A stretch of 64,000 nucleotides of DNA from Octopus vulgaris (lineage: Eukaryota), in contig OX597819.1 of assembly GCA_951406725.2 (NCBI GenBank), positions 92,690,001 through 92,754,000 on the forward strand, written 5' to 3'. Positions 5,195 to 61,150 of the stretch are shown here, piece after piece. The notes under the pieces were generated by a model. The model worked only from the letters and a program-made list of their open reading frames with translations, did not search any database and was not told the DNA's origin. Each line of letters starts with the position of its first letter. Positions within the stretch are counted from its first letter, which is position 1. Both the position numbers and the translations under genes were made by a program.

Positions 5195-5293
5195 GACGCT
5201 TGTCCAAGTTGGCGCGCATTACGACTGAATTCATAACGCCTTGACTGCAAAGTGAGTTGCTTAGCTACACACAACCATGCTTGCGCTTATAGC

Positions 5294-5399
5294 AAAATAT
5301 GGAACGCTTTACGAAATTGCGGGCTATCCTTGAGCAGGGACCATGTTAATCTTCTCTGTTTCATTCCAATTTTAGGATATATCCTGGCGAAGCAAGTAC
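5294..5399 (-). pseudogene. U6: Full-length U6 snRNA pseudogene
   Basis: Reverse complement aligns end to end with U6 (GTACTTGCTTCG...ACAGAGAAGATT...CCATATTTT); ACAGAGA intact, AGC triad changed to AAC, many substitutions. Confidence 0.9.
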
Positions 5400-11660: not shown

Positions 11661-11920
11661 CCTAAGTTAACTTAGATCCAAGGATAAACATTCTGTGGTT
11701 GAAGATACACTAACCCGCGCTCGCACTCTCTCTCTCTCTCTCACACACACACATATATCCTGTGCCATATAATGTATATATTGATAAAAATATATATATG
11801 TGTGTATGCATCTATGTATGTATATATATATATATATGTAAGTATTTATGTATGTATGTATGTATGTATGTATGTATGTATGTATGTATGTATGTATGTA
11901 TGTATGTATGCATATATATA

Positions 11921-12070
11921 TTGGTAAAAGCGTTAAGATAACAAAAGAAAGAAAGAGACCTCAATATTATGTAAATAGAGGAAATTTATCGGTGTTGTGT
12001 ATTTCCACGTCGGCATCCGAAACTCAGAGTTTTATCTTGGCTATTGAATAATTGTCACATATTATTTTAC
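11921..12070. mobile_element. Short head-to-head fragment of the Naiad-like pLTR family
   Basis: 11921-11990 matches 15355-15421; 11991-12065 matches 16508-16582 in the opposite sense, including CATCCGAAACTCAGAGTT; flanked by (TA)n. Confidence 0.75.
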
Positions 12071-12723
12071 ATATATATATATATATAATAGAAAATACAC
12101 ATTGTGTACAGGACATCAACGAGTGAAAAATACGTAAACGCACGAGAGAAAAGTTCAGGACAAAATAGCAAAAGAAGATAATTCCTCATCAGTTGTTGGA
12201 CTGTTTATTACTCCTAGTTCGTGCTTTTAACGACAATACAGGGAAACGTCATAAGACAGCAGCATCCAGAAATTTTAGAAATATAAAATTTAAAAGAGAG
12301 TTAGAGCTTCGAACGAACAAACAACCACTGAGAGGACGTACAGAATAAGCAATCAACGAAGACAAGCATCAAGGGCCATTAGGGTATTGGGTAATACCTA
12401 AGTGAAGTTTTTCAAGGAAATAGAACAATTAGAAGAGAAGAAAATGGTAGAATAGAATATCTAGAAGAGAAGAAAATAGAAGAAAATATCGGAAGTGGAG
12501 AAAAATTACATCCAACCCAATGAATATCTAGTCCAGAAAAGACAGGGGCAAGAAAAATAGCCTTTAATCACGTGTGAGTAACAGAGGCTGGTGATGTCCT
12601 GTACGCAATGTGTATTTCTTATTTTATTTATCTATAATCGAATGCCATTCAGCCTTGACCACAATAAATTTTTACATATATATAAGTGTGTGTGTGTATG
12701 TATGTATGCATGTATGTATGTAC

Positions 12724-13548: not shown

Positions 13549-14325
13549 CTTAATTACTCTTTTACTTGTTTCAGTCATTTTACTGCAGCCATGCTGGAGC
13601 ACCGCCTTTAAAATTGTGTATAGAAAGAAAGCAAAGACTGGCCAAATAATAAGACGAGAAAAATATGTCGATAGAGATTACGTAGAGAAGACAAATTTTT
13701 CCTGGTGCCAAAATTAATAACGTGTCGGCAAGTATGGGACCAGTACGTGGCCGGTCGTCTTGTTAAAAATAACAACGAATTTCCGTTAAATCACAACTTA
13801 AAGTTAAAAAATAAAAAAAAGATAAAGGATCCATTTTCAATGTTTTGCTGGGTGCTCCTAAAATCCGAATGGTCAACGTGGGAAATTCATTTTATAATAA
13901 ATCTGCTCAGTCAGAGCTAAACAACAATAGCAGCACCGACTACAACAAAGAACCCCCATAATCAGCAACTAAAATTATGCAATAACGATGGAAGAATTTT
14001 ATACATTAGTAAAAGACACGGGTGGTAGGAAAGAAGTTTTGCATATTCTGCCATTTTTCTAGCTCAAGGAATACAATAGCACTAAGCTAACAGCTCCTAT
14101 TATATCTATTTCAACATTTTCTTCTCGACACACCAATATTTTTCTAAAGCTCTTTCTTTCCAAACATTAGCGAAGCTCTATTAAGTCTACATCTATAGAC
14201 ACAAGACTCCACATACGAGAAACCAATCTTTTTCTTTATCATTCTATATACAGTGTGTGTGTGTGTCTGTGTGTGTGTTTATAAATATATATACATGTAT
14301 GTATATATATATATATATATATATA

Positions 14326-15116
14326 GCAATAATAATTCTCTAAAAGAGATATAGACAGTAACTGCTCGATAACATAAGGGACTGAAGCCATCTGAATATG
14401 GCTAGGGACAGGGCAGGGTGGTGGGGGTGTTACTGTTGCATTTAGCCCCAGGCGAACATCGACGTCACCAGAAAGGCTAGACACCGTCACGGTGTCCTTA
14501 TCCTGCAAAGGGAGGTAATTCCCCGATGAAGCGGAAACCACACACGGACCATGGTTTCAAGGTGTATTGCCTATCGTCGGCGTGTGGTAGGCTTCCGCTT
14601 CATCGGGGAATTACCTCCCTTTGCAGGATAAGGACACCGTGACGGTGTCGAGCCTTTCTGGTGACGTCGATGTTCGCCTGGGGCTAAATGCAACAGTAAC
14701 ACCCCCACCACCCTGCCCTGTCCCTAGCCATATTCAGATGGCTTTAGTCCCTTATGTTATCGAGCAGTTACTGTCTATATCTCTTTTAGAGAATTATTAT
14801 TGCTTTCGAACAGATTTTCGAAATCAGCAAATGTATTTTGCTTGAAAATCTATATGTGAAAATCCTGCAGAGTGAGAATTCGTCGAGGAAGCGGAAGCCT
14901 ACCACACGCCGACGATAGGCAATACACCTTGAAACCATGGTCCGTGTGTGGTTTCCGCTTCATCGGGGAATTACCTCCCTTTGCAGGATAAGGACACCGT
15001 GACGGTGTCTAGCCTTTCTGGTGACGTCGATGTTCGCCTGGGGCTAAATGCAACAGTAACACTCCCACCACCCTGCCCTGTCCCTAGCCATATTCAGATG
15101 GCTTTAGTCCCTTATG

Positions 15117-15120
<4 letters not shown>
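14326..15120. mobile_element. Hammerhead-containing 360-bp tandem unit preceded by an inverted copy (retrozyme/pLTR-like)
   Basis: Inverted copy 14326-14600; direct copies offset by 360 bp (14593-14760 and 14953-15120); (TA)n on both sides. Confidence 0.85.
14903..14948 (+). ncRNA. Type I hammerhead motif, CCGACGA core variant
   Basis: CACACG-CCGACGA-tAGGcaatacaCCTt-GAAAC-CATG-GTC-CGTGTG; stem I extends via GAAGCGGAA/TTCCGCTTC; mirror copy on the minus strand at ~14540-14586. Confidence 0.7.
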
Positions 15121-15155
<35 letters not shown>

Positions 15156-15288
15156 CACTCACATATATACTTATATATAAACTTACTTAATCCATACACT
15201 TTACTGGTGGTGAAAGAATAGAAGATAATAAATACTGTTTCTTTCTCTTTCTCTCTCTTCTTCTCTCACTGTCTGTCTGTCTGTCTGC

Positions 15289-15340
<52 letters not shown>

Positions 15341-15354
15341 ATATATATATATAT

Positions 15355-16060
15355 GATAAAACGGTAAGATAACAAAAGAAAGAAAGATACCTCAATATTA
15401 TGTAAATAGAGGAAATTTATCTATACAATAATATGTTACTTTACTCGGTAGTCAAGATAAAACTCTGAGTTTCAGATGCCGAAGTGGAAATCCACAACAC
15501 CATCTCTTCGGTTATCTGGCTATTTGAAAACACTATTGAAAAAATACCGTTAAATAAAGGGAAATTACTGTGTTATAACTCTGCTTGCCTGCGTACTTAT
15601 ACATCGCTCGCATTTTTCGTCATAAAAATTATATAAAAATACATAAAAAATAAAAAAAATATATAAAAATATATAAAAATCTTCTTGGGATATAACATAG
15701 AAAGCATGTTCTATCTGTTTTCTTTAGGGGACCAAAAACGTAACAGAAATTTAGTCACATTTGGGCATGATCCGAAAAGTTCTGTCCTTGTATTTAGACA
15801 TGTAGTAGGGTCTAAGCTGCTTTTCCAGATAAGCCATCTCTCCATGTCGCATAGACCGCACCTTCCACTGCCGTTGGTATAGGGCTTACATCTGGCTAAA
15901 ATCTTCCAATGTATGTTATAATCGACACCTTTATCTCTTAAAGACCAAATATGATTAGATAATTGTGTCGCTTTTCTTTTGTTCCAGTGCCTAAAGCTCA
16001 AAGTGTGGTTATTGAACCTGGCCTTGAAATTACCCTCTGTAAGGCCCACGTATTTCTTCA
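15355..16060 (-). mobile_element. 5'-truncated Penelope-like element (Naiad-like): GIY-YIG C-terminus plus 3' UTR/pLTR with hammerhead
   Basis: KKYVGLTEGNFKARFNNH..SF..TQLSNHIW..W.IL..C.LC..E..I..LN.R.EL...C (16060-15711); hammerhead-like motif at ~15455-15515; ends in (TA)n. Confidence 0.85.
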
Positions 16061-16108
16061 TCGAAACGGTTAGTAAGGAGAGACACAAATAAGTAAGAAG
16101 AAAACAAA

Positions 16109-16153
16109 GGACCACTGATGCGGTCACAGGAGTGTGACGAAAGAACTCTGGCC
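16109..16153 (+). ncRNA. Degenerate hammerhead-like motif
   Basis: GGACCA-CTGATGcg-GTCAC aggagt GTGAC-GAAAG-aa-CTC-TGGCC. Confidence 0.4.
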
Positions 16154-16359
16154 GAAATAAGATTAAGATTAATGTAAAAAATAAATAACACTGAAGCAAA
16201 GTAACACCAAATATATAGTACGTGTGTTTTTATTTTATTGGCTAAACTGGCAAAATGACCATTCCGAAATACAACAATATCTGTTTCAACACACGACTTC
16301 ACATAAAAAATCTTGCACAACAAATATTTAAACGTATATATATATATATATATATATAT

Positions 16360-16657
16360 GTAAATGTAATATGTGATAATTATTCGGTAGCCATGATAAA
16401 ACTCCGAGTTTGCGATGTCGAGGTGGAAATCCACGCCACCATCTCTTCAGTTATCTGGCCATCGAAAAAATGCTGCATTTTTCCGATGGCCGGATAACTG
16501 AAGAGATGGTGGTGTAGATTTCCACCTCGGCATCCGAAACTCGGAGTTTTATCATGGCTACCGAATAATTATCACATATTACATTTACAGATAAATTGCT
16601 CTATTTACATAATATCGAGGTCGCTTTCTCTCTTTTGTTGTCTTACCATTTTTATCA

Positions 16658-16659
<2 letters not shown>
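16360..16659. mobile_element. Palindromic pLTR-derived element with hammerheads on both arms
   Basis: Inverted repeat 16360-16588 centred at ~16473; plus-strand GATAA-CTGAAGA(16498)-GATG..CATC-c-GAAAC-TCGGA-GTT-TTATC; left-arm copy has GAAA changed to CAAA. Confidence 0.85.
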
Positions 16660-16689
<30 letters not shown>

Positions 16690-24774: not shown

Positions 24775-24850
24775 AATGTACTGAAGAAGTCACGGACACT
24801 TGAATTATGCAAGTAATTCTTTTGTTAAGACCGAAACCGAGGTATGCATT
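24775..24850 (+). ncRNA. Type I hammerhead ribozyme motif, canonical core
   Basis: AATGTA-CTGAAGA-aGTC...GACc-GAAAC-CGAG-GTA-TGCATT; 6-bp stem I; lies in a ~400 bp insert (24615-25008) with (TA)n on both sides. Confidence 0.8.
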
Positions 24851-44998: not shown

Positions 44999-45537
44999 AT
45001 GAAATGGATAGATGAATTTTCTTGTTACGGATTATTCAAAAGTTTAACCGATACCTGGGTAGCAAAAATCACAGCAGAAAAAACACGGTTGGAGTTACGA
45101 CCATAGGGTGTCGCAACCGTGCGTTAGCGCAGATAATTGAAGTTTAATATATTAAGTGAATGGAAGAAATGGAGCTGAACGAAGATTCTACAGAATTCCT
45201 TTTATTACATTCTACACATGTTTCAAAGGCCACAAATTTCCAAATTCGGATTGAATAAGGATACCATTTTGCAGCTTTCTCTTCAGGAAAATCCAGGAAT
45301 TAAAATGTCCAAACAAAACAAAAGCGCAGCAAGCAATTCGAACAAAAACGCTCCCTTGGAGCCCATGGAGTGGCACAAACTGTCTCTCAATGTACGGATT
45401 TTCCTGAAGAGAAAGCTGCAAAATGGTATCCTTATTCTATCCGAATTTGGAAATTTGTGGCCTTTGAAACATGTGTAGAATGTAATAAAAGGAATTCTGT
45501 AGAATCTTCGTTCAGCTCCATTTCTTCCATTCACTTT
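44998..45537. mobile_element. Palindromic hammerhead element in (TA)n
   Basis: Arms 45154-45294 and 45396-45536 near-identical; TTC-CTGAAGA(45404)-long stem II-GAAAC-ATGT-GTA-GAA on the plus strand, mirror copy on the minus strand. Confidence 0.85.
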
Positions 45538-45558
45538 ATATATATATATATATATATA

Positions 45559-46750: not shown

Positions 46751-49100
46751 ATGTATGTGTGTGTGTGTGTATGTATGTATGTGTGCATGCGTGTATGTTT
46801 GTGTGTATGTATGTGTACATGCGTGTATGTGTGTATGTGTGTGTGTGTATGTATGTATGCATGCATGTGTGTATGTATGTGTGTGTATGCATGTGTGTAT
46901 GTATAATTGTATGTGCGTATGTGTGTGTGTGTATGTATGTGTGTATGTGTGTGTATGTATGTATGTGTGTATGTGTGTGTGTATATTTGTATGTGTGTAT
47001 GTATGTGTGTATGTATGTGTTTGTGTATGCGTATGTTTGTGTGTGTGTGTGTGTGTATGTATGTATGAATGAATGTATGTATGTATGTATGTGTGTGTGT
47101 GTATGTATGTGTGTGTGTGTGTGAATGTATGCGTGTGTGCGTGGGGTTTCCTCTGGAGTTGTGTGGGCGTAAAGTATGTATGTATGCGTGTGTGTGTGTA
47201 TGTATGCGTGTTTGCGTGTATGTGGGTGTGTATGTATGTATGTGTGTGTGTATGTATGTATGTATGTGTATGTCTGTATGTCTGTCTGTATGTATGTGTG
47301 TGTGTATGTGTGTGTGTGTATTTGTATGTGTATGTATGTATGAGTGTATGTGTGTATGTGTGTGTATGTATGTATGTATGTATGTATGTGTGTAAGTGTG
47401 TGTGTGTATGTATGTAGGTATGTATGTGTGCGCGCGTGCATGCATGCATGTATGTATGTATGTACACACACACACACACACACAACACACACACAAGCAC
47501 GCATATGGGGCTTGCGGCATCCCAGGCGCGCGCCAGGGCGCCCGCGCTTGAGCCCGCGGACCCACAAACACCCACAACAAAAAACCCATCGCCATCAATC
47601 CCTCAACTATAAAGCGTGCGCCTGGATACAAATATATGTATATGTGTGTGCATGCGTGTATGCGTGTGTGTATGTATGCATGTATGTGTGCATGCGTGTA
47701 TGTGTGCATGTGTGTGTGTGTATGTATGTATGTGTGTGTTTATGTGTGTATGTATATGTGTATGTGCGTATGTGTGTGTGAATGTATGTGTGTTTGTATG
47801 TATGTGTGTGTGTATGTGTGTATGTGTGTGTGTGTGTGTGTATGTGTGTATGTATGTATGTATGTGCGTATGTATGTATGTGTGTGTATGTGTATGTTTG
47901 TGTGTGTGTGTATGTATGTTTGTATGAATGAATGTGTGTGTGTATGTATGTGTGTACGTATGTATGTGCGTGGGTGTGTGTGTGGATGTATGCGTGTGTG
48001 CGTGGGGTTTCCTCTGGGGTTGTGTGGGCGTAATGTACATGCGCGTGACGTGCGTGTATGTGTCTGTGTGTCTCTACTATGTGTTTATAATGGTGTGCGT
48101 ATCTGTATGGGTATTGTTTGTTGGTGTGAGTGCACGGGCATGTGCGTGTGCGCGTGGGCGTGTTTGGGTGTGTGTGTAGGTGTGGAAGTATGTATGCGTA
48201 CAAGTGCGTGTAGGTTGTATGTGTGTGGTGTGTTGGAGGTAGGTGTGTTGGATGTAGTTATGTTGGGAGGGGGGTGTTCGTGGATACGTAGGTATGCGTG
48301 TGTGTGTTTCTGTATAAGGATTTTTAAAAAGGGGGGTGGGTGGAGAAAGAGAGGTGGAGCGCAGTCACTAAGAGGAGGGGGCTGTGTTGAGTCCGTGTGG
48401 GGTATTGGCTTGTAGAGTGCAGATGAAACGTTGCTCCAAGTGAAGCCTGGATTGTGGAAGACCGTTGTGTGGGGCGAGACCAAACACAGAGATGTCATCG
48501 GGGGAATGGCTGGCCGAGCGGAAGTGACGTGCGACGGGAGAAGAGGACCGTAGACGAATATCCCTTAGATGTTCGGCGAATCGGTCTGACAACCGGCGTC
48601 CCGTCTGTCCTATATACAGCATTCCGCAGAGGTTGCATCTAATACAGTATATGAGGCCAGACGAAGTCCACGTAAAAGAATGTCTGATACGTACAGTTCG
48701 CTGGATGGAACCGGTGACAGCAGTGGTGTTGATGATGAAGGGGCAGGTGTTGCAGCGGGATCTAGGGTACGGTAATGATCCGTGTGGGGCTGAGGGGGAA
48801 GAAGAGAGGGTGCTATGGACCAGGAGGTCGCGTAGATTCCGGGCTTGTTTGAAGGAGGGCAGGGGTGGGTTGGGAAAATGGCGCGGGTCGTGGGATCGAG
48901 CTGGAGGTGACGGAAGGCACGTAGTATCTTCCGACGAAGGGGTAGAGTAGAGGGGTGGAAAAGGAGGGGAAAGGGGGTGCGGTTGGGGGGGGTGAATGAA
49001 AGGAGAAAGGGCGGTGGTGCGGTCGATGCGACGGGCACGGGCGAGGGCATTTAAGACTAGTGTGGGTGGGTATCCTCGGTGCCTGAACAGGCGCGCCAGG
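45559..49100 (-). mobile_element. 5'-truncated Penelope-like element (Neptune-like) with microsatellite-expanded 3' region
   Basis: GIY-YIG remnant at 48368-49000, followed on the minus strand by CA-rich sequence, ending at (TA)n; element extent is inferred. Confidence 0.55.
48368..49000 (-). pseudogene. Penelope/Neptune GIY-YIG endonuclease and linker
   Basis: ARNLRDLLVHS..RCNTCP..SSGLIYCIRCNLCGMLYIGQTGRRLSDRFAEHLRDIR..PVARHF..LEQRFI..L...PHGLN. Confidence 0.9.
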
Positions 49101-49118
49101 TATTATATATATATATAT

Positions 49119-49869: not shown

Positions 49870-50565
<696 letters not shown>

Positions 50566-57288: not shown

Positions 57289-59000
57289 TGAAACTATCTA
57301 TTAGACTCATATGCACAACAAAATTGGACCTGGGAAAAATTAGCAAGTTTATACTAGATAGAATCATACCTAAAATCAGAAATAAAGTTAACCTCCTTCT
57401 ATGGAACTTTACGGGAGTGTAATTACATGGTTTAATGCTATTGTCGATAAAGAACACCCATTTTCATACAATTTGATATCTCCAGCTATTATGCATCCAT
57501 CTCACCTATTCTTCTAAATAAAGCATTAATATTTGCCCGTAATTTTGTCAACATTTCTAGGCCAGACATTGGTATAATATTAGCTGCAAGGAAGACTTTA
57601 ATAAACTTTAACAGACATAACTGGATTAGATCTGATTCAATGGATTGTTTTGACATAAATATGGGATCATCAGACTCGACTCAGGTAACTGATCTAGTAG
57701 GCTTATATCTCTTGTCCCAAATAAAAGATAGCTTCTCTAATTATCGGGTGGTGTATGTAGGGATTCCGCGCTCCTTGCTACTAACGGTTTATACAATCCG
57801 AGGGCTGTGAGGATTAAGAAATCCTTGAGAAGATTCCTCCTAGAATTTTTTAACCTTAATATAGTATATGATGCGAACACCAAAGTTATGAATTTCCTAG
57901 ATGTTATATTAAATCTTAATACTAAACTCTATTATCCATATCGGAAGCACTATCAACTAATACAATATATCAATGTTTCCTCAAATCATTCTAAAACTAC
58001 CGTTAATAGTTTGGTCACAGCTATATTGATAAGGTTCTCCAATCTTTCGGCTAATGAGGAAATATTTAATGCGAATGCACCCGTTTATAATCAAGCCTTA
58101 AAATTAAGTGGCTTTAGCAATCAAATTTACTATATACCCGATAGTAAACTTAAAACAAAAGTATCTAACAATAGTAACTCTAAATTAACACTGATACGTC
58201 ACTGGAAAATATAAGTAAAATTAAGCCCTCGGGTAATTATACTTATATTAGATATAATAAAATAGGTTCCAACAATAAAAAATAAATGCTGTGCTCAAGA
58301 ACATGATATATCAAAACTGTCTAAATCTAGGAAGCGTGAAGTAATTTGATTTGACCCATCCCATTCTCCCTTGCTGTTAAAAGTCTACATCCCAAGACAT
58401 AATTTTCCAAAACATCACAAATATTACGCAATATGCAATAAAACTTCTATAAAATTTTCTTATTCCTCAATGCCAAATTTAGGATCAATTATAGCATCCA
58501 TTAATAAGGACAAAATCAAATATCAAGCATTCAAAACATTTAACATTGATATGAAACCAAGTATAAATATTATAAGTATATTCGGAACCCATAATTCATA
58601 TAATTCAACATCAGATGAAAATAACTCCAATTCGTTGATAGCCTTGAATAAGTCCGCCCCCACCCCAAATTATAGATGAGTGCAACAATAAATTGGAAGA
58701 AACATGTAGTTGTAGGAAAAGCGATTTATGCCCGCTTGAAGGATTCTGCCGCCGCAAAAATGTAGTATATAAATGTACGGTAGTATCAGATAAGTATCAG
58801 GATAGAACATATAAAGGTAATGCTGTTGAGTTTAAAAGAAGATACTGAACGCATTTAAATTCATTTACTAACATTAAAAATAAAACTTCTACTACTCTAG
58901 CCTCATATATACATACTTTTAGGAATAATAACATTAATCATAAATGTTTTTGATCTATACTAGCAAACGCCCTCTCCTATAATACTATCAGTAACAATGC
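57289..59000 (+). mobile_element. Penelope-like element (Naiad-like) RT plus GIY-YIG, degraded
   Basis: FIQFDISSYY, FDINMGSSDSTQVTDLVGLYLL, NFLDVILNL..YYPYRK..YINVSSNH, FSYSSMPNL, CSCRKSDLCPLEGFC..VVYKCTV; frameshifts and stops. Confidence 0.85.
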
Positions 59001-61150
59001 CATATCGCGCCATGTTAGGCCTAAGATTTTGCAGAGGCATCTGAGATGGAACATTCTGAGGCACCTTTCCTGTCTGCTGTACAAGGTCCATGTTTCATAT
59101 CCATAGAAGAGTGTGCTGAGAACACATGCTTCATAAATCCTGATCTTTGTCTTGATGTCTAATCTCTTGTTCTTTCATACTCGTTTTGTCAGCCTTCCAA
59201 AAGTTGTTGCTGCCTTCCCTATCCTGGCGTTAATCTTATCCTCAAGTAAAGCATTACAGGAAATGATACACGCTAGTCAGTGGAACATATCCACTGTCAC
59301 AAGCTCTTTGTCATCAAGCTTGATATGGCCTTTCACTTCGCCCACCTAAGTGAGGAAGACTGTCTTCTTAACATTGATGATCAAACCGAAGGACTTGCAT
59401 ACTGATGATAGGTGGGCCATCATTTTTTGTAGAGTTAATTCACTGTGAGCAACAAGTGCCGCATCGTCGGCGAAGAGAAAGTCTCTTATTGTTGCTCTAT
59501 TGATCTTGGTCTTGGCCCGAAGTCTAGAAAGATCAAAGAGTGGCCTATCAGTTCTCCAACAAAAGTAGACATCTCCTGGTGATTCTTGGAATGCATACTG
59601 CAGCAATACAGCAAAGTAAATACTGAAAAGGATTGGTGTTAAGACACAACCTTGTTTTACTCCTCTGTTGATGTTGAAGCTATCTGATATTAAACCTTCA
59701 AACTGAATTATGGCCTTCATGTCATCATGGAACGAAACAATGAGCTGCGGCAGTATTGAGGGACAGCCACATTTTCCAAGCACCATGTACAGTCCTGATC
59801 TGCCGACTGTATCAAATGCCTTTTCTTCATATCGAAAAATGCTATATATAGTGGTAATTGCTGCTCCCGGCATTTTTCTTGTAGTTGACGAATGGAAAAG
59901 ATCATATCCATAGTTGACGGGTTAGATCTAAAACTGCACTGGCTCTCTGGTAGTACTCTTTCTGCTAGCTTCTGAAGTCGTTTCAGAATTATTCTCGCAA
60001 AAGCTTTTCCAGTGATGCTCAGAAGTGAGATGCTTCTGTAGTTATTGCAATCTCCCCTGTCCCCTTTATTTTTGTAGAGAGTGATGATCTTGGGATCTCT
60101 CATATACTGTGGAATTTTTACTTCCAGCCAACACGTCTTTAGTAACTTGTATAAATGTGGATGGAGGGCATCTTTGTTCTCTTTTAACACTTCAGCAGGT
60201 ATATTATCATTTCCAGGTGCTTTTCCGTTTGCAAGTTCATCGATTGCAGTGGAGAGTTCTTCCGTTGGTGGTATATCAAGTTCTGTCATTTCGCGGAGCT
60301 GAGGAATGGCCTCATCAAGCTATCAACATCTTGCACGTTTGTGTACAATTTAGAGTAATGTTCCACCGATCTTTCCATTTGTTCCTTCTTGTCCGTCAGT
60401 TGGTCACCTGTTGCAGACTTGAGAGGTGCCACTCTACTCACTGTTGGTCCGAAAACAACTCTAATCTTCTCATACCTTTTTCCTTGGGACACTGTTGATC
60501 ACATCCTGAAGTTCCTCGTAGAACTGATCTTTCCTCTCATTTTCTGCTGTTAGAATCAGGGCATAGGCACTAATGAGATGGGCCCTTCCAGTTTTAGCCC
60601 CCACTTCCATGATACTGATGCGCTCAGATATGCCTCGAAGAGTACTGATCTTCTTCAGCAATCTGTTGTGTACTGCGAACCACACACCATGGATTCTCTT
60701 CTCATCTTCCCCAAGATCATTTCAGAGGAATGTGTGATTTCTTTCCCTAATGGAACAAAGCCAGCAAGTCTTGTCTCTTGCAAAGTAATGATGTCTACAT
60801 TCAGCCGTGTGAGCTCCCTGTCAATGATTGCCGTTTTCCTTATGTCCGCTGTTTCCGGTTGTCATTGTTCTGACATTCTAGATCCCCAGTTTTAATGGGG
60901 TCAATTTCAATATTCTTCCTCTTTTGCCAGGTGCTGGGCTTAACGTCTGCTTTTCGGTTTTTGTCCTAGCTCCATATACACTTAGCAGTGGACAGACGTG
61001 GTGGATCAGCACCTTACTGACTGGGGACTACCCAGTTTAAGACGGATGGTAGCTGATCAGGTCCCACTTCACTAAATGAGGATGCCTTATAACCCGTAAT
61101 CCGCCACTCCCGTATTTTTTCCCTTGTCTCTTACAGCAAGGATGAAGTGT
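59001..61150 (-). mobile_element. RTE/BovB-like LINE (APE plus RT), 3'-truncated, with deletions
   Basis: DIITLQETRL, ISAYA, KDQFYEEL (APE); GKAPGND, KNKGDRGDCNNYRSISLLS, KAFDTV, GVKQGCVL, LFADDAAL (RT). Confidence 0.92.

Follow-up and report, generated by a model that had tools for sequence, protein, structure and literature searches.

Introduction

Metazoan non-LTR retrozymes are described in the main text of PMC7229834 as ORF-less tandem units of 150-450 bp with a GC content under 50%, a type I hammerhead and a palindromic helix III. That PLEs move retrozymes has already been proposed, both in PMC7229834 and in bioRxiv 10.64898/2026.07.22.740005, and in the papers considered here the idea has so far been based on co-occurrence and homology. 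Catalysis of such predicted units is not a given, as eight of nine predicted Xenopus retrozyme dimers did not cleave (10.64898/2026.07.22.740005).

Insertions of EN+ PLEs consist of partial tandems, often with an adjacent inverted and 5′-truncated copy; one of their ends carries a tail of 30-40 bp, and they are biased towards (TA)n (PMC8557442). One inverted PLE junction (Pen2a_Av) has a 15-bp overlap and others have palindromes, which was read as self-priming (PMC3846280). In vitro, purified PLE protein cleaves both DNA strands, extends each of them and initiates at two sites within the RNA, the gap between these sites corresponding to the tail, and ribozyme mutants that are dead for cleavage still insert (PMC11167929). 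How the tandem and inverted ends of PLEs form and what the hammerhead contributes are stated as open questions in the text of PMC8557442 and PMC11167929.

Here, we analyze a 64,000-nucleotide stretch of the Octopus vulgaris genome (hereafter the window), in which positions 14326-15120 likely represent a single, recent insertion of a multi-copy 360-nt hammerhead repeat without an ORF, i.e., a non-LTR retrozyme. Judged by its sequence organization, the locus fits a retrozyme-type unit that was inserted with the standard PLE signature. Its specific, non-random detail is an inversion junction in helix I of the hammerhead, while its other features are of an already known kind.

Results

Layout of the insert

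Positions 14326-15120 form a non-coding insert of ~800 bases that is flanked on both sides by (TA)n. The left target run lies at 14303-14325 (TRF array 14280-14325) and the right one at 15118-15150, which has 3 nt in common with the element end. A target site duplication would fall within (TA)n on either side. The direct arm (14593-15120, plus strand, 528 nt) starts +11 to +20 past the cut site of the upstream unit, ends at +178 and includes one full 360-nt unit (14761-15120, plus strand). An earlier note on this DNA had claimed a 360-bp direct repeat with an inverted copy upstream, and both were recovered. The direct repeat pairs 14590-14760 with 14950-15120 (98%), and this overlap of 171 nt at a spacing of 360 means that the direct part comprises only 1.47 units and not two full ones. 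The inverted arm (14326-14601, minus strand, 276 nt) spans the 5′ arm of helix I, the hammerhead and the sequence up to +221/222 past the cut site. It matches the direct arm at 98-99% (99% for 14325-14539/14590-14804 and 98% for 14369-14612/14877-15120), and 14528-14601 on the minus strand is identical to 14888-14961.

The two 3′ ends of the insert point outwards, both into (TA)n. Measured from the predicted cut site, the right end is at +178 nt and the left end at +221-222 nt, which leaves an extra 43-44 nt on the left. This tail (14326-14368, minus strand) occurs at the left end only and is an exact match to 14761-14803/4. The combination of a partial tandem, an inverted 5′-truncated copy, a one-sided tail and a (TA)n target fits the published signature of PLE insertions as far as the sequence can tell, and the inverted layout in itself is an ordinary PLE insertion pattern (PMC8557442, PMC3846280, PMC4209133). 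Every mark that these studies describe for PLE insertions is found at 14326-15120 except the ORF. The insert is not an autonomous PLE, because no ORF with RT plus GIY-YIG occurs in 14326-15120. A second locus of the 360-nt unit was not found within the 64-kb window.

The copies differ by only a few bases, as had been stated before: over the 159 nt common to all three unit copies there are three variable sites, two of them private. At the third site, the left arm (14479) and copy 2 (15010) have T and copy 1 (14650) has G, which is the majority base in all four runs compared below and makes up ~98% of the depth in run X1. These differences also bear on the origin of the inversion, for which a chimeric assembly, or a rearrangement that came later and had nothing to do with the insertion, is an extremely improbable source. 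Against it speak a private base in each arm, the offset of the two ends by a tail of PLE size, the continuation of both 3′ ends into (TA)n and the presence of similar head-to-head inserts elsewhere in the window.

Hammerhead motif

The type I hammerhead motif claimed earlier for 14903-14948 (plus strand) is borne out by our own descriptor and by its pairing; two of its features, U4C and a U-U in helix II, had not been mentioned. Helix I has 6 bp (14903-14908/14943-14948), helix II (14917-14919/14927-14929) has the U-U mismatch first and then three pairs, and helix III is an 8-nt palindrome (14934-14941), with the cut predicted after 14942 (14942/14943). Helix I opens into an internal loop, and helix II ends in a loop of 7 nt; the two may resemble known loop 1-loop 2 contact loops. 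With its 6-bp helix I, short helix II and palindromic helix III, the motif fits the canonical type I shape when set against the hammerheads of PMC4209133. The core begins at 14909 and reads CCGACGA. It is not intact at the conserved U4, where both copies have C instead (14910 in the plus-strand copy), and the motif departs from the canonical hammerhead at this position. Each arm has one hammerhead motif, and the minus-strand copy (14541-14586, core start 14580) is identical to the plus-strand copy.

Our hammerhead descriptor gave three matches in the window, namely both arms and one at 24781, and none in each of 20 block shuffles. The match at 24781 (plus strand) stands alone; it is hammerhead-like, its helix II region is long, and a (TA)n run lies at a distance of ~160 nt. 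Rfam reported no hammerhead at gathering score in the window or at E<=10 in 14200-15300. All 30 Rfam matches at E<=10 in the latter region were below the gathering score, the best of them being miRNA models that fit the inverted repeat or microsatellites.

At position 14910, the four runs compared list no variant, so that U4C appears to be the state of the family. U4C is a known, weaker natural hammerhead variant, which lowers activity in vitro yet still supports a viroid in vivo (PMC3088659). In the monomer, the hammerhead fold lies 8.8 kcal/mol above the minimum fold, and the double-hammerhead fold (-67.6) is about as stable as two minimum folds (-68.2), both calculated without tertiary terms. 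Because of these fold energies of monomer versus dimer, hammerhead activity is predicted mainly in dimers; the modeled ribozyme would be weak alone and would work, if at all, as a dimer.

The 360-nt unit as a repeat family

Part of the unit is present in 20 of the 24 listed runs (11 studies, six organism codes, one possibly the source sample). Contigs were compared for four of the 24 runs against one unit (14700-15059) with the likeness set at 85. Run X1 alone has 1,318 contigs on the unit with many variant bases (the contigs are short and copy number is not derivable from them), which is at odds with the single-copy locus considered as an outcome in the earlier note. Run X15 has a single 390-nt contig (360 + 30) that re-enters its own start; this is read as a closed loop in the 31-mer graph and is no evidence of an RNA circle. 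A single contig of 407 nt, more than one period, represents the unit in run X17, and run X2 has a 355-nt contig; none of the 24 runs is listed as RNA, and run X2, which is only guessed to be RNA, serves here as a contig, not as evidence of expression. The contigs of X15, X17 and X2 all bridge 14804/14805, which is where a PLE would continue into its ORF or where a truncated copy would begin. The 360-nt period is therefore a feature of the family, as single contigs bridge this point and cover the whole period.

The longest Met-started frame of the unit has 50 aa and its longest stop-free frame 90 aa. Its GC content is 46%, and 14761-15116 folds strongly (z -7.5 versus shuffles). Being ORF-less, 360 nt long and multi-copy, the unit supports the retrozyme-like character that had been assigned to it. 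The earlier note had also considered a unit that is always attached to a full PLE ORF. In its explicit form, this reading sees no more in the insert than the pLTR end of an autonomous PLE, with two truncated copies giving rise to the 360-nt period locally. All structural marks of the insert do belong to PLE ends, and opposite-strand hammerhead pairs 100-700 bp apart occur in truncated PLEs (PMC4209133). In addition, the summed X1 depth, a poor measure, is lower over 14808-14927 than in the rest of the unit, and the loose ends listed are only 11 of 76. However, the contigs of three runs bridge 14804/14805, two of them covering the whole period. Among the 11 of 76 loose ends listed, there is no long common extension ahead of the hammerhead, and in its helix sizes the motif is closer to the canonical retrozyme type than to the minimal type of PLEs (PMC4209133). 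We therefore regard the pLTR reading as very unlikely. A rarer, ORF-bearing relative of the unit may exist alongside, considering that 11 of 76 loose ends are listed and that the X1 contigs are short.

Summed X1 contig depth rises over 14928-14963, falls after ~14800 and is lower over 14808-14927 than elsewhere. This profile as a sign of copies that start near the cut site and end at the tail was dropped, since depth is no copy number. Exact-pattern scans of metagenome contigs, prokaryote genomes and viral contigs revealed no unit, and phages gave no match.

Inversion junction in helix I

The strand switch had been placed at about 14593-14601, within an extended stem I, and this position holds. 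The inverted 5′ arm is still followed at base 14592 and the 3′ arm at base 14602, which places the crossover within 14593-14601, a 9-nt microhomology common to both extended helix I arms. In the full unit, the 5′ arm of the extension spans 14877-14899 and the 3′ arm 14950-14972 (both plus strand), and the junction 9-mer corresponds to the match 14888-14896/14953-14961, the longest perfect inverted match in the unit. It is the outer part of the helix I extension, which has ~30 imperfect pairs overall.

Only 20 of 129,600 possible junction pairs (0.015%) fall inside a match of that length, and the same two stem arms form the best 30-nt cDNA-cDNA duplex of 7,260 segment pairs (~-22.5 kcal/mol). 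On both counts the position of the junction is not due to chance, in a comparison that was made once the junction was known and that covers one event. What this single locus shows is that the join used the best available complementarity. In most X1 copies base 14896 is G, which would leave 8 nt of perfect match. A single opposite-strand joint is listed (14795/14857, one X1 contig), and it lies away from the stem; stem joints could have been absorbed as mismatches at a likeness of 85. Among the other head-to-head inserts in the window with a recognisable hammerhead, none of three is joined in helix I. Neither an inversion junction in a hammerhead stem nor a cephalopod retrozyme was found in the main texts searched, which included few subscription journals.

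It is intriguing to propose that the ribozyme of this family programs the insertion junction, with cleavage fixing one template 5′ end and the ~30-bp helix I extension acting as annealing site, a proposal that we consider doubtful at present. The run-off cDNA would then carry the complement of the second cDNA, which would have crossed an uncut hammerhead. If true, head-to-head junctions should pile up in helix I genome-wide, PLE hammerheads would help to close the insertion, and U4C would slow cleavage so that cut and uncut templates coexist.

Proposed mechanism of insertion

We consider it probable that a PLE reverse transcriptase/endonuclease acted in trans and that two cDNAs from a multimeric RNA were joined head to head through the copied helix I arms. 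Briefly, a tandem array would be transcribed into multimeric RNA. The enzyme would cut both strands of the (TA)n run, and each 3′ end would prime reverse transcription, with internal start sites at +178 and +221/222 from the cut site giving rise to the one-sided tail. The right cDNA would grow to 528 nt and stop in the 3′ arm of helix I, either at a self-cleaved RNA end or where the enzyme stalls at the stem; both would fit, and a distance of 11-20 nt separates the end of the right arm from the upstream cut site. The left cDNA would end in the 5′ arm of helix I after 276 nt. Since two arms that are complementary in the RNA remain so when copied into cDNA, the two cDNA 3′ ends would anneal in the helix I arms, followed by trimming and fill-in. 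The hammerhead sites of the template would have been uncut or religated, because both cDNAs crossed an intact hammerhead.

The earlier note had proposed a circular or multimeric RNA as source. Of these two, one diagnostic base favors a heterogeneous multimer over a single circle: the sequence leans towards two different neighboring units of a multimer having been copied, as the simplest account of the T common to 14479 and 15010. Gene conversion between the inverted arms could mimic this one-base allele argument. A monomeric 360-nt circular RNA that was read 1.47 times by rolling-circle copying, with the join made as for two annealing cDNAs, would yield more than unit length and read-through of the cut site. 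Retrozymes of coral, mussel (350-390 nt) and axolotl accumulate as circles (PMC7229834), and the unit folds compactly (z -7.5). Yet a single circle should yield copies without initial differences, whereas copy 1 has the majority base G and copy 2 and the left arm the minority base T. A closed contig is equally expected from DNA tandems, and U4C together with the weak monomer fold makes efficient release of a monomer uncertain. A circular template thus appears quite unlikely.

An unlikely, if conceivable, alternative to the annealing of two cDNAs is a fold-back, in which the 3′ end of the right cDNA pairs with its own earlier 5′ arm (14888-14896) and self-primes the inverted arm, and later processing by the endonuclease makes the tail asymmetric. 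This alternative comes near to the template switch of the earlier note. The left arm should then equal copy 2, which the T shared by 14479 and 15010 fits. Self-priming has been proposed for palindromic PLE junctions (PMC3846280), and resolution by the endonuclease is offered as a source of the tail in PMC8557442. However, the right arm ends at +178, so that the extra 43-44 nt on the left need another step, and in vitro the tail is the gap between two start sites (PMC11167929). Fold-back from the left cDNA instead would run into the flank at 14804 and predicts the wrong allele.

Annealing of two cDNAs is preferred because it accounts for the tail of 43-44 nt on one side as well as for the allele pattern. 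The hairpin-guided template switch suggested in the earlier note is retained in so far as the join uses the ribozyme stem; a single-strand switch alone does not give both the tail and the allele pattern.

Other elements in the window

The window is very rich in microsatellites (155 TRF rows), with a recurring short interspersed repeat, and contains four other head-to-head inserts, which belong to other families. The insert at 16337-16670 represents a second family and lies between (TA)n runs, with the longer tail on the right; its junction is a perfect palindrome around 16474, ~20 nt before helix I of its hammerhead. The same second family forms the head-to-head insert at 11912-12085, which has its junction at 11990/11991, a right arm that begins inside helix II and no microhomology by eye. 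Helix I looks short (5 bp by eye) in the two inserts neighboring 14326-15120. The third, a 540-nt head-to-head insert between (TA)n runs at 49892-50431, includes a hammerhead-like motif (core 50047, minus strand) with U3-A8 core covariation, and its junction is a 15-nt duplication ~100 nt from the motif. At 45147-45543, inverted arms of 148 nt (98.6%) enclose a 101-nt spacer; no hammerhead passed our descriptors there.

GIY-YIG-bearing, PLE-like fragments are present in the same window. The one at 15340-16229 (minus strand) has a stop-free frame of 172 aa that matches GIY-YIG weakly (Pfam E 0.007, below the cut-off; Atlas lead 0.89), and this GIY-YIG-like frame is followed by a hammerhead-like end of another family that runs into (TA)n. 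This fragment may belong to the clade Neptune; no homology to the 360-nt unit was found in it. PLE-like coding fragments were further recognized at 48368-49102 (minus strand; weak GIY-YIG match, E 0.0008, below the cut-off) and, by eye, at 57741-58679 (plus strand; no significant Pfam match). A comparison of the unit with six element-end regions behind the PLE-like ORFs of the window gave no alignment above shuffle level, and no autonomous partner of the unit was found within the 64 kb. A broken LINE-type reverse transcriptase lies at 59346-60319 (minus strand) in two frames (RVT_1, E 5e-14 and 9e-10). The only Rfam match at gathering score in the window is a U6 snRNA copy, either a gene or a retrocopy, with several changes (5293-5399, minus strand, 83 bits), and no tRNA was detected in the 64-kb window.

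Comparison with known systems

The 360-nt unit shares with metazoan non-LTR retrozymes its length, its motif, the lack of an ORF, its GC content and its multi-copy nature. Mussel retrozyme units have 350-390 bp, close to the 360 nt found here, and in the axolotl HHR_Amex2 helix II starts from a U-U, as in the motif at 14903-14948 (PMC7229834). In contrast to described retrozymes, the octopus locus consists of only 1.47 direct units plus an inverted arm, has U4C and is known from sequence alone. The words 'inverted' and 'octopus' are absent from the main text of PMC7229834.

Li, Clavereau and Pollet (2026; 10.64898/2026.07.22.740005) arrived at the same view, in which retrozymes are mobilized by PLE machinery. 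They argue from co-occurrence and pLTR homology and name no mollusc in their text, whereas the evidence from this locus is an insertion signature; the words 'tail' and 'junction' are absent from their text. A retrozyme insert with the full PLE signature gives direct structural support to the mobilization of retrozymes by PLEs. Li et al. call a retrozyme active if it has two or more consecutive units with complete hammerheads, and the octopus insert has one complete motif per strand. This lowers its standing as an active source copy, not its membership in the family. The high-copy, polymorphic 360-nt family with its long helix I is well suited for a genome-wide test of twin priming versus fold-back and of circle versus multimer.

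Compared with EN+ PLEs, the insert has no RT-EN ORF, and its tail of 43-44 nt is slightly longer than the published 30-40 bp (PMC8557442). The junction match is here the helix I extension of the ribozyme itself, which was not found stated in the text of PMC8557442, PMC3846280 or PMC11167929. Hammerheads of PLEs occur as dual motifs 100-700 bp apart on opposite strands, depend on dimers and have low activity (PMC4209133); the octopus motif is alike, its need for a dimer and its weak activity being predicted. The minimal PLE hammerhead has a helix I of 4-5 bp and a helix II of 7-8 bp, as opposed to the 6-bp helix I and short helix II of the motif at 14903-14948, which, unlike PLE hammerheads, also lacks G10.1-C11.1 (PMC4209133).

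Finally, in twin priming of L1, both ends of the break are extended by reverse transcription and joined by microhomology (PMC11702581), which is the same as proposed here for the octopus insert. The inverted pieces of L1 are adjacent parts of one RNA (PMC11702581), whereas the arms of the octopus insert overlap by >200 nt and therefore need two templates or a repeated one.
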